Source: Escherichia coli
GTDB taxonomy: Bacteria; Pseudomonadota; Gammaproteobacteria; Enterobacterales; Enterobacteriaceae
NCBI RefSeq assembly: GCF_044324875.1
Contig: NZ_CP172185.1
Reading direction: 5' to 3' (one strand)
Length of the DNA: 64,000 nt
Both the position numbers and the translations under genes were made by a program. The notes under the pieces are model-generated. The model was not told where the DNA came from and ran no database searches. It saw nothing but the letters and a program-made list of their open reading frames with translations. Positions 10,759-43,586 of the stretch are shown here, piece after piece (position 1 is the first letter of the stretch; the number at the start of each line of letters is the position of its first letter).

Positions 10759-11661
10759 ATGTCACAGGTTACTGAAAATAAAGTGATTAGCGCACCGGTG
10801 CCGATGACCCCGTTACAGGAGTTCTGGCACTATTTTAAACGCAACAAAGGCGCGGTCGTCGGGCTGGTTTACGTCGTCATCGTGCTGTTTATCGCGATCT
10901 TTGCCAACTGGATTGCACCCTATAACCCGGCGGAACAGTTCCGCGATGCACTGCTCGCCCCGCCAGCCTGGCAGGAAGGCGGCAGCATGGCGCACTTGCT
11001 GGGCACCGATGACGTAGGCCGTGATGTGCTGTCGCGTCTGATGTACGGTGCGCGATTGTCACTGCTGGTTGGCTGTCTGGTAGTTGTGTTATCGCTGATT
11101 ATGGGCGTTATTCTCGGCCTGATCGCCGGTTACTTCGGAGGCCTGGTCGATAACATCATCATGCGCGTGGTCGATATCATGCTGGCGCTGCCAAGTCTGC
11201 TGTTGGCACTGGTGCTGGTGGCGATTTTCGGCCCGTCGATTGGTAACGCCGCGCTGGCGCTAACCTTCGTTGCCTTGCCGCACTATGTGCGCTTAACCCG
11301 CGCCGCCGTGCTGGTGGAGGTGAATCGCGATTACGTTACCGCGTCTCGCGTGGCAGGTGCCGGGGCGATGCGTCAGATGTTTATTAACATCTTCCCGAAC
11401 TGCCTTGCGCCTCTGATTGTTCAGGCGTCGCTCGGTTTCTCTAACGCCATTCTCGATATGGCTGCTCTTGGTTTCCTCGGCATGGGGGCGCAGCCGCCAA
11501 CGCCGGAGTGGGGCACCATGCTCTCCGACGTGTTGCAGTTCGCGCAAAGCGCCTGGTGGGTCGTGACCTTCCCGGGTCTGGCGATCCTGCTGACGGTGCT
11601 GGCATTTAACCTGATGGGTGACGGTCTGCGTGACGCGCTCGATCCCAAACTGAAGCAGTAA
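10759..11661 (+). CDS. dppC: dipeptide ABC transporter permease DppC
   Basis: 300-aa permease ORF directly downstream of dppB. Confidence 0.9.
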
Positions 11662-40677: not shown

Positions 40678-40749
40678 TGATAATTGCCGGATGTCTGACA
40701 TCCGGCAATTAAACAGATTTAGAGTGTTGGCAAAGTGTGCTTTGTTCAT

Positions 40750-40785
40750 GCCGGATGCGGCGTGAACGCCTTATCCGTCCTACAA
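40750..40785. repeat. REP element
   Basis: GCCGGATGCGGCGTGAACGCCTTATCCGTCCTAC, canonical REP-type palindromic unit, downstream of the yhjG terminator hairpin ATTGCCGGATGTCTGACATCCGGCAAT. Confidence 0.6.
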
Positions 40786-40858
40786 ATCTTTGCGAATTCA
40801 ATATATTGTATGGAAATTCAGGCCTGATAAGCGTAGCGCATCAGGCTTTTCACTCTTA

Positions 40859-42181
40859 TTACAACGATTGATGTCGCGTCTCATGGGTCAGCAGCAGGGC
40901 GATTAACGTCAAGCCAGCCATCGCCGCCAGATATAACCCCACCGCACCTAACCCGTAGTTAGTCTGCAACCAGGCTGCGATATACGGCGCAACGGAAGCC
41001 CCGAGAATCGACGCTACGTTGTAAGAGAACGATGCTCCGGTGTAACGCACTTCTGTCGGGAACAGCTCTGGTAACAGCGCGCCCATCGGCCCGAAGGTCA
41101 GTCCCATCAGACTTAATCCCAGCAGCAGGAAGGCAAAAACCAGAATCGGGTTGCCAGAACCGAGTAGCGGGTTAAAGGCGAACAGCGCGAACAGGATGAT
41201 CAGCGTGGTGATGATTACCATGCTTTTACGGCGACCAAAGGCATCAGCCAGTAATCCGGCGACTGGTACCATCACGCCAAAACCAATCACTGCCATCATC
41301 AGCATCCACAACACTTCGTTACGCGGCAGGCCAAGCCCAACTGGCGCGGCGGCGGTACTAAAGGTCATAGAGTAGACCGTCATGATGTAAAACAGCGTAT
41401 AGGTTGCCAGCATGATGAAGGTACCGAGCACCGTGACGCGTACGTGTTTGGTCAGCAGCGTACCCAGCGGGATCTTCACCTGCTTTTTCGCTTTAGCGAC
41501 TTTCTCAAACACCGGCGACTCATGCAGCGACACGCGAACATACAGGCCGATAATGACCAGCACCGCCGAGAAGATAAACGGCACACGCCAGCCCCAGCTC
41601 ATAAACTGCTCGTCGGTCAGTAGCCAGGAAAGCAGCAAGAAAGTGCCGTTGGCAAAGAAGAAGCCAATCGGTGCGCCCAGCTGCGGGAAGGAGCCATACA
41701 GTGCACGTTTGCGCGGTGGGGCGTTTTCAGTCGCCAGCAGCGCCGCGCCGCCCCATTCACCGCCTAAGCCCAGACCCTGACCAAATCGAGCCAGCGCCAG
41801 CAGCAGCGGGGCGAAAATACCAATCGTGGCATAGCCCGGCAGCAGACCAATCACCACGGTCGAAATCCCCATCGTTAGCAACGAGGCGACCAGCGTCGCT
41901 TTACGCCCAACGCGATCGCCAAAATGACCAAAAACGGCAGAGCCAATGGGGCGCGCGACGAAGGCGATGGCGAAGGTGGCGAGCGACTGGAGCGTTGCTG
42001 CCGTAGGATCGCCCTGCGGGAAGAAGATATGCGGAAACACAATAACGGCCGCAGTGGCGTAAATGTAAAAGTCGAAGAACTCAATGGCCGTGCCAATGAG
42101 AGAGGCGACAAGGACTTTATTACGCGAGTTGATCGGCGTGTATTCTTGCTCGTGGTCGAGTGTTGTGGCTGTTGCTTGCAT
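40859..42181 (-). CDS. yhjE: MFS metabolite:H+ symporter YhjE
   Basis: 440-aa multi-TM ORF. Confidence 0.9.
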   Translation of the reverse strand: MQATATTLDHEQEYTPINSRNKVLVASLIGTAIEFFDFYIYATAAVIVFPHIFFPQGDPTAATLQSLATFAIAFVARPIGSAVFGHFGDRVGRKATLVASLLTMGISTVVIGLLPGYATIGIFAPLLLALARFGQGLGLGGEWGGAALLATENAPPRKRALYGSFPQLGAPIGFFFANGTFLLLSWLLTDEQFMSWGWRVPFIFSAVLVIIGLYVRVSLHESPVFEKVAKAKKQVKIPLGTLLTKHVRVTVLGTFIMLATYTLFYIMTVYSMTFSTAAAPVGLGLPRNEVLWMLMMAVIGFGVMVPVAGLLADAFGRRKSMVIITTLIILFALFAFNPLLGSGNPILVFAFLLLGLSLMGLTFGPMGALLPELFPTEVRYTGASFSYNVASILGASVAPYIAAWLQTNYGLGAVGLYLAAMAGLTLIALLLTHETRHQSL

Positions 42182-42572
42182 AATCTTTTCTTATTTTTTG
42201 GCTAACGAATAGCCATATTACGCACAGCAAAAGTGATATTTCAATGTGTAACAAATCGCGGAAATGGTCAAAAACCAGGCAAAAAGGGGATAATGTTTAG
42301 GCCAGTGATTTTTCTTCTATGAAATGCTTCACATAATTTTATAAATAGTGGATAAAACTGGTTTCAGGTTAAATAAAAGTTACCAACTGGATTTATATGC
42401 TGGGGTTATGAGTTGGTATGAAATTGTTTGCTCCTGAAGAGATGTAGTTTCAGGTGGTTATGTGCATGTCGTTGCCTGGTCTCTGGCTGGCTTGTACCCC
42501 CTCACCCTAATCCTCTCCCCGAAGGGGCGAGGGGATCGACCGTGCGTTTATCAGGCATTATAAACCAATGAA

Positions 42573-43586
42573 TTACCGCTGCGTTTTCCCCGGCATTCGC
42601 GGGTCGTCTTTATATTCGGCGGTGGCAATCCACGCCGCGCAAAACAGCGTCAAACGGGCGAAGAAGTAGAAAAACGCCATCAGCCCCAGCACGGAACCAA
42701 ATGCTGCGCCAGAGGGGGATTTCATCAGCGATGGCAGGGTGTAGGTCATCACGATTTTAATCACTTCAAAACCAATCGCAGCCAGAAATGTTCCGCGAAT
42801 CAGGGCTTTTTTGCGCGGACGGTGGCGCGGCAAGCGCCAGAAGATCCAGAAGAAAAGCAGATAGTTGGCGAAGATGGAAATCGCCAGGCCAATCAACCGC
42901 CACGTCGGTTTCAGCCACTCAATGCTGTTCAGGTGCAGGGCGCTAATAATCATTTGCTGCGCCGAACCGGCAACCGAGGTGATCGAAAGCGTCACAATCA
43001 GTGCAATCAACAAACCAATCAGTGAAATAAAATCACGCAGATATTTTACCCAGAACTTCTCCTGATCTTGCGGCGAGCGTTCCCAGACATCGCGTGACTG
43101 GGCGCGAATCGCTTCACGCAGGTTACCCATCCAGTTGATGCCGGAATAAAGCGCCACCGCCAGGCCGACAAGCCCTACGGTAGTACGCTGCTGAACGGCG
43201 GTGTTGATGGTGTTTTTCAACGTGGCGGCTAGCGTCGGATCGCTGATGTTTTGCAGAATTTTGTCGAAGATATCCTGTAGCAACATCGGATGGGAGGCCA
43301 GCACAAAGCCCCCTGCGGCAAACGACACCATCAAAATCGGGATCATCGACAAAAATGAGAAATAGGTGATAGCCGCGCCAAACTGGTTACCCAGCCGATC
43401 GTTAAAGCGCTCTGTTGCGCGAATCAGGTGCGCAATAACCGGTTGGCGTTGGACTTTCTCGGCAGTAGTGGTGACGGTTTCCAGCGCCTGGCTAACTTTG
43501 CCGCCTTTCTCGCTATTATCCAACTGCTTAATCGGCTCGTGCTCCAGATCCTGGGTGGGACGTTTGATCTCGTTTTCCTGCGTCAT
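42573..43586 (-). CDS. yhjD: inner membrane protein YhjD (YihY/virulence factor BrkB family)
   Basis: 337-aa multi-TM ORF. Confidence 0.85.
   Translation of the reverse strand: MTQENEIKRPTQDLEHEPIKQLDNSEKGGKVSQALETVTTTAEKVQRQPVIAHLIRATERFNDRLGNQFGAAITYFSFLSMIPILMVSFAAGGFVLASHPMLLQDIFDKILQNISDPTLAATLKNTINTAVQQRTTVGLVGLAVALYSGINWMGNLREAIRAQSRDVWERSPQDQEKFWVKYLRDFISLIGLLIALIVTLSITSVAGSAQQMIISALHLNSIEWLKPTWRLIGLAISIFANYLLFFWIFWRLPRHRPRKKALIRGTFLAAIGFEVIKIVMTYTLPSLMKSPSGAAFGSVLGLMAFFYFFARLTLFCAAWIATAEYKDDPRMPGKTQR

Follow-up and report, generated by a model that had tools for sequence, protein, structure and literature searches.

The stretch of DNA analysed here (the window; 64,000 nucleotides of Escherichia coli contig NZ_CP172185.1) carries yhjD and, downstream of it, yhjE (Table 1), and the ORF coordinates place the spacer between them at exactly 42182–42572, the intergenic region to which a sequence-only reading had assigned a GC-rich palindrome. 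The palindrome could be confirmed by reading the sequence (window 42497–42534), and it lies downstream of yhjD as had been claimed, although at a measured distance of 38 nt from the stop codon (42573–42575) and not at 40 bp. The string quoted in that reading, CCTCTCCCCGAAGGGGCGAGGGG, is located at 42512–42534, and on the minus strand, which is the coding (sense) strand of yhjD and also the strand that carries the motif, the full order is CCCCTCGCCCC-TTC-GGGGAGAGGA-TTA-GGGTGAGGGGG. Arms CCTCTCCCC and GGGGCGAGG, from the first and second blocks, are complementary at 8 of 9 positions; however, the first block has a second pairing option with the third, in which CCCCTCACCC (42498–42507) and GGGCGAGGGG (42525–42534) are 90% complementary (9 of 10 positions), so that the element is a three-block structure and not a simple palindrome. 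The 27-mer that the sequence-only reading proposed as a search string occurred once in the window and in none of 100 shuffles, as did the published 36-nt consensus when up to 3 mismatches were allowed (one occurrence; 0 of 100 shuffles).

Table 1. Features of the yhjD–yhjE region, in window coordinates.
Feature	Position	Strand	Basis or remark
BoxC block 1 (pyrimidine), CCCCTCGCCCC	42524–42534	-	Sequence read; fits CCCTCNCCC of the TMECO pattern (PMC4666352)
Loop 1, TTC on the minus strand	42521–42523	-	Same GAA/TTC loop in the closest paralogue (trmJ/iscR)
BoxC block 2 (purine), GGGGAGAGGA	42511–42520	-	Last base is the lineage-specific G to A (plus-strand T, 42511)
Loop 2, TTA	42508–42510	-	Makes the copy 'type A' (type A/B definition, PMC4666352)
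BoxC block 3 (second purine block), GGGTGAGGGGG	42497–42507	-	The minimum-energy RNA prediction pairs it with block 1
Extended BoxC unit, about 75 bp, core and conserved flanks	42488–42562	-	Alignment with 12 K-12 copies, BLAST, trmJ-iscR alignment
Allele-variable segment	42466–42577		BoxC here; two REPs (BIME) in K-12 and most E. coli
yhjD CDS, 337 aa	42573–43586	-	ORF; RefSeq annotation of identical DNA; BoxC in its 3' flank
yhjE CDS, 440 aa, downstream neighbour	40859–42181	-	ORF; RefSeq annotation of identical DNA

Judged from its sequence, the palindrome is almost certainly one slightly mutated copy of BoxC and not specific to this gene. As a repeat of the Enterobacteriaceae, BoxC is short and GC-rich, non-coding and non-autonomous; it was first noted adjoining envM/fabI and has been surveyed among the enterobacterial short palindromic repeats. 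The core blocks found here are those of BoxC, later named the PIT element or TMECO intrastrand-triplex motif (Holder et al. 2015, PMC4666352), and an independent description of the same family, under the name HPG1/HPG2, presents it as a G-quadruplex-hairpin switch (Kaplan et al. 2016, PMC5100583). Compared with the commonest K-12 form, CCCTCGCCCCTTTGGGGAGAGGGTTAGGGTGAGGGG ('type A mm'; Table 1 of PMC4666352), the window copy agrees at 34 of 36 positions, that is, with 2 differences. A K-12 comparison set was assembled from 11 loci holding 12 copies, using the coordinates in Table 1 of PMC4666352, which fit NC_000913.3, and in the resulting alignment of 13 sequences (the window and the 12 K-12 copies) conservation extended past the core into both flanks (5', GCACGG..GATC; 3', GGTACAAGCCAGC), with its limits at about GCGCACGGACGGTC (5') and GAACAGCC.AGCAC (3').

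Paralogous BLAST matches to a 115-bp segment (window 42462–42576) were limited to query positions 25–95, and the closest other copy, which is present in many strains, lies between trmJ and iscR, 8 nt past the trmJ stop codon (91.5% identity over 59 bp, E=1e-13 against 28 Gb), with a looser likeness spanning window 42488–42562. The BLAST extent and the trmJ-iscR alignment therefore indicate a unit of about 60–75 bp, in line with the 50–56 bp (and 22–32 copies) tabulated for BoxC (PMC2267715). RefSeq annotates no feature over the window copy, which it leaves as intergenic between yhjD and yhjE, and none of the other copies examined, including those at the K-12 loci, is marked as a repeat. An Rfam scan of 41800–43000 at permissive E returned no family at threshold; the best match, Antizyme_FSE, reached 18.6 bits, where the gathering score is 40, and was dismissed as being at chance level.

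The family is numerous elsewhere. A 56-bp query around the palindrome matched a median of 18 places per E. coli genome (range 1–33), of which 89,906 of 89,958 were chromosomal, and the 115-bp query (E≤1e-3) matched a median of 15; the preference of the sequence-only reading for a dispersed-repeat family over a gene-specific hairpin was thus correct. In NZ_CP042899.1, a genome identical to the window across the spacer, the two queries matched 16 and 12 places, respectively; mismatch-tolerant searches thus found related copies elsewhere in a genome with this very spacer, so that the palindrome is not a single genomic occurrence and its identity as a repeat stands. Within the 64-kb window, searches with the 27-mer, the consensus and the motif pattern found no BoxC copy beyond this one, and the family can therefore be demonstrated from other genomes only. 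Copy number was uneven among E. coli, some strains, such as an ST1193 isolate and strain A22, having 2–4 significant copies versus 16 in K-12. Beyond E. coli, the 0.88 Mb of sequence around yhjD from 108 other Enterobacteriaceae genomes held 33 motif matches with no more than 2 substitutions, in genera that include Enterobacter, Lelliottia, Kluyvera, Pluralibacter and Cedecea.

The copy in the window departs from the published motif at one position. The window and strain 550 have T at 42511, where the orthologues in an O102:H6 strain and in EC190329 have C, as do the other copies aligned; on the motif strand the change is G to A in the last base of block 2, and both C-bearing orthologues match the published TMECO motif exactly. 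By comparison with these orthologues, the window copy has begun to decay through one lineage-specific substitution in block 2. The strict TMECO pattern (CCCTCNCCC N3-6 GGGNGAGGG N3 GGGNGAGGG) had no match in the window, a failure which is due to the single substitution at 42511 and not to absence of the family, and with one mismatch allowed the pattern matched GGGAGAGGA; this corresponds to the 'mutated TMECO' class acknowledged by the authors of PMC4666352. The change would be expected to cost the motif one base triad next to loop 2. The minus-strand G-tracts read GGGG-AGA-GG-ATTA-GGG-TGA-GGGGG, of which three have at least 3 G, and the four-tract G3 quadruplex motif (PMC5100583) is absent from the window copy, its second G-tract being cut to GG. 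The strict-pattern failure and the missing fourth G3 tract therefore make structure-based roles weaker for this copy. The substitution also bears on how the family can be found: the exact 27-mer CTCACCCTAATCCTCTCCCCGAAGGGG is probably private to this locus, and, because it includes the lineage-specific T at 42511, an exact-match search would likely mislead by appearing to refute the family. A private substitution in the query copy can in this way give false negatives in exact-match repeat searches, and a mismatch-tolerant search is therefore needed.

The site past yhjD is occupied by different repeats in different strains. The whole spacer as in the window was found in 600 of 5422 E. coli genomes (about 11%), the remaining 89% being without BoxC here. 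K-12 and most E. coli match the window up to 42444 and again from the yhjD end, with two inverted REPs (a BIME) between, and ZH063 is among those with the same BIME carrying an 18-bp deletion. The K-12 allele is a REP allele on the grounds of its sequence, of its copy number (at least 40 places per genome for the K-12 segment versus about 15 for the window segment) and of an IS1397 insertion. A gene for the transposase of this IS3-family element was observed in the yhjD-yhjE spacer of strain SK1402 (NZ_AP046545.1, L015 1076–2424), in a REP allele; IS1397 inserts specifically into BIMEs, and its presence there fits the REP identity of that allele.

The exchanged stretch is about 105–110 bp in both alleles and extends into the final yhjD sense codon, the protein ending in QR in the window and in QP in K-12. 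For the last YhjD residue (window 42576–42578), R is shared by the window, E. albertii and Salmonella, and P by K-12, E69 and E1V33, whereas SCPM-O-B-8794 has N and E. whittamii has H; the residue varies with the downstream repeat, and repeat turnover therefore reaches the coding sequence. In a sample of 60 E. coli rows no empty-site allele (neither BoxC nor BIME) was seen, although one rarer than a few percent could escape a sample of this size; flank-to-flank spans in these rows were 450–452 and 470–471 bp, plus one IS-disrupted case.

The polarity of the exchange is clear. No BoxC-like motif occurred within 450 nt after yhjD at any of 108 other Enterobacteriaceae loci (one genome per species, scanned by means of a degenerate pattern for the YhjD C-terminus), and REPs followed yhjD in all six Escherichia-lineage representatives sampled (E. 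albertii, E. whittamii, Escherichia sp. MOD1-EC7003, Escherichia sp. E1V33, E. coli SCPM-O-B-8794 and E. coli E69); the REP state is therefore ancestral and BoxC derived within E. coli. A 20-bp indel was also seen at window 42444/42445, where K-12 has an additional GCTGAAGAGGCTCTGGGGAC, and the short form is common to the window and the divergent E. coli SCPM-O-B-8794 (L025), which hints at an old haplotype or at one imported by recombination.

Since REPs occupy this site in other strains, and BoxC copies adjoin REPs at several loci of K-12, the palindrome might be regarded as a diverged REP/BIME element and not as a member of a separate family, but the alignments refute this reading and leave it next to no probability. 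Flanks aside, the window segment and the K-12 BIME align at scattered positions only, whereas identity to BoxC copies is 83–92%, and the copy numbers of the two segments differ as given above. By inspection, window 42466–42572 contains no REP-like word of the REP consensus palindrome type (GCCGGATG...CATCCGGC), and REP words are present in the alleles of K-12, ZH063 and the sister species.

The opposite arrangement was observed on the other side of yhjE. In the window, REPs follow yhjE in the yhjE-yhjG spacer (40678–40858), whereas E. coli E69 and Escherichia sp. E1V33 have an inverted BoxC pair after yhjE (L049 4340–4590; L117 ~11207–11380), with a duplicated stretch (about 60 bp) lying between the two members in E69. 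REP and BoxC occupancy on the two sides of yhjE is thus reversed between the window and E69. This reciprocal swap, the adjacency of BoxC and REPs at several K-12 loci and the near-equal lengths of the exchanged segments point to BoxC and REP/BIME elements being interchangeable in 3' intergenic niches, perhaps with BoxC arriving through a process that targets or replaces REP sites; we regard this as a long shot. If true, it would imply a mobilisation or gene-conversion mechanism shared by two supposedly unrelated repeat families.

With regard to function, the sequence-only reading had allowed that the palindrome may simply be the yhjD terminator. A gene-specific intrinsic (Rho-independent) terminator would accord with a GC-rich stem-loop on the sense strand at this short distance past the yhjD stop codon, but the stem is followed by GTACAAGCCAGCC, which has no T/U run, and a stem-loop without a U-tract is not able to act as an intrinsic terminator. 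A scan for promoter and terminator consensus sequences reported nothing at the palindrome, related sequence occurs at 12–16 places in the spacer-identical genome NZ_CP042899.1, and 89% of E. coli genomes do without BoxC at yhjD. Published tests agree: Hoyne and Maher found no terminator activity for these elements, and earlier tests found no promoter activity either (summarised in PMC4666352). The suggestion is therefore unsupported, and we consider such a terminator very improbable. A separate inverted repeat with perfect 8-bp arms, TACCAACT/AGTTGGTA, set 22 nt apart, was noted at window 42381–42418, followed on the minus strand by ACTTTTATTT, and its surroundings (CAGCATATAAATCCAGT..AACTTTTATTTAACC) are recognisable even in Salmonella; this repeat probably either belongs to the promoter or regulatory region of yhjE or is a weak terminator for yhjD.

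A role at the RNA level has more to recommend it. As RNA of the yhjD sense strand, the 45-nt core folded at -26.5 kcal/mol (z = -3.3; 4 of 200 shuffles equally good), and the antisense RNA of the core gave a weaker fold (-19.3 kcal/mol). REP stem-loops are known mRNA stabilisers, and the hairpin could act as a 3'-UTR stabiliser equivalent to the REP pair that it replaced, blocking 3'-to-5' exonucleases and so protecting the yhjD mRNA. In addition to the predicted stability of the sense-strand hairpin, its position is the same as that of the BIME of other strains, most K-12 copies lie directly past stop codons (tauD, adk, zntA, pstA, yihS), and the closest paralogue is similarly placed past trmJ. 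However, K-12 copies have no orientation bias (tally; PMC4666352), which argues against a strand-specific RNA role, and the antisense strand folds less well. Among solitary K-12 copies between tandem genes (tally of Table 1, PMC5100583), 2 have the same sense as the upstream gene and 3 are antisense to it; an apparent sense-strand excess among the 12 fetched K-12 copies vanished on the full tally from that table. A location bias of the motif towards gene 3' ends has been reported (PMC5100583), and only 1 of 16 copies lies between divergent genes (Table 1, PMC5100583), spacers which REPs also avoid; this bias is equally explained by selection against insertion into promoters. We therefore regard mRNA stabilisation as possible but doubtful.

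The element might instead be functional as non-B DNA, either as a replication-stalling intrastrand triplex of the purine motif that drives local instability of the genome or as a G-quadruplex/hairpin/duplex switch that regulates its neighbours. Triplex formation in vitro has been shown for oligonucleotides of the consensus, and loci with the motif vary more from strain to strain (PMC4666352), circular dichroism provides evidence for a hairpin/G4 switch (PMC5100583), and the yhjD-yhjE locus is itself polymorphic, with an IS1397 insertion in one strain, though this lies within the REP allele and not in BoxC. Against this, in vivo DMS footprinting showed duplex DNA and did not detect the triplex (PMC4666352), local variability is equally expected if the repeat is merely gained and lost, and the G to A change at 42511 drops both one predicted base triad and the canonical four-tract G3 motif of this particular copy. 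Any association with gene function was moreover absent in both studies (PMC4666352, PMC5100583), and we consider a functional non-B element unlikely, somewhat more so than mRNA stabilisation.

The account we prefer, with high confidence as the best explanation overall, is that of one BoxC copy which replaced a REP pair and whose role we infer to be passive. Whether BoxC at yhjD has any selected role at all seems to us an even question. Mechanistically, we infer that the element is most likely passive: a structure-prone repeat that is tolerated in 3' intergenic space and not a purpose-built signal. If transcription of yhjD passes the stop codon, its RNA would include a stable stem-loop that lacks a U-tract, and this stem-loop might at most form a barrier to 3'-to-5' exonucleases, a role known for the replaced REPs; should the element have a role here at all, this one would be the most plausible. 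As single-stranded DNA the element can adopt a hairpin, triplex or quadruplex in vitro, and the stalling of replication or repair at such structures may favour local rearrangement, which would fit the turnover of alleles at this site.

Nothing here is new in kind: the BoxC family has been described since the 1990s and was studied again in 2000–2016, and the copy is an ordinary one. As RefSeq carries no BoxC annotation, such copies will go on attracting notice as odd palindromes. What the yhjD-yhjE spacer does offer is a clean natural case of one repeat family replacing another, with clear polarity and with both intact and mutated BoxC versions, and its alleles are ready-made, isogenic-like material for asking whether BoxC does anything. 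The replacement of REP by BoxC belongs to the class of 'intergenic change' already reported for these motifs (PMC4666352), and further loci share the intact core together with its TTC loop (PMC4666352). Enterobacterial yhjD was also encountered in records of Roseomonas sp. 18066 (L090, a 422-bp contig) and Chryseobacterium sp. 18061 (L119, a 429-kb contig), the former with a sequence like that of E. coli K-12, REP allele included; these are probably contamination or mislabelled assemblies.

Set beside known repeat systems, the window copy is closest to BoxC as classically defined: the core and flanks are the same, the element is intergenic, multi-copy and chromosomal, and the K-12 copy between fabI and ycjD aligns with it directly. 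It differs in that K-12 has no copy at yhjD, in its one block 2 substitution and in the extent of its likeness to the trmJ-iscR copy, which at about 75 bp is somewhat longer than the classical 56 bp. We know of no transposase or binding protein associated with BoxC. Viewed as a PIT/TMECO element (PMC4666352), the copy belongs to type A with one mismatched triplet ('A mm'), sharing the order of C-block, G-block and G-block and the TTA second loop; a block 1 G stands opposite a block 2 A, as in 13 of 23 K-12 copies, and the copy is one base off the search pattern CCCTCNCCCN3-6GGGNGAGGGN3GGGNGAGGG. HPG1 (PMC5100583) is the same family viewed from its G-rich half, GGGAGAGGGTTAGGGTGAGGG, although here the second G-tract is GGA, which leaves three runs of at least 3 G and no canonical quadruplex pattern. 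REP/BIME elements, in contrast, are unrelated in sequence and occupy at least 40 places per genome (the REP segment) as against about 15 for BoxC, yet they share with it the 3' intergenic niche and the capacity to form hairpins, and at the yhjD site the two are alternative alleles.
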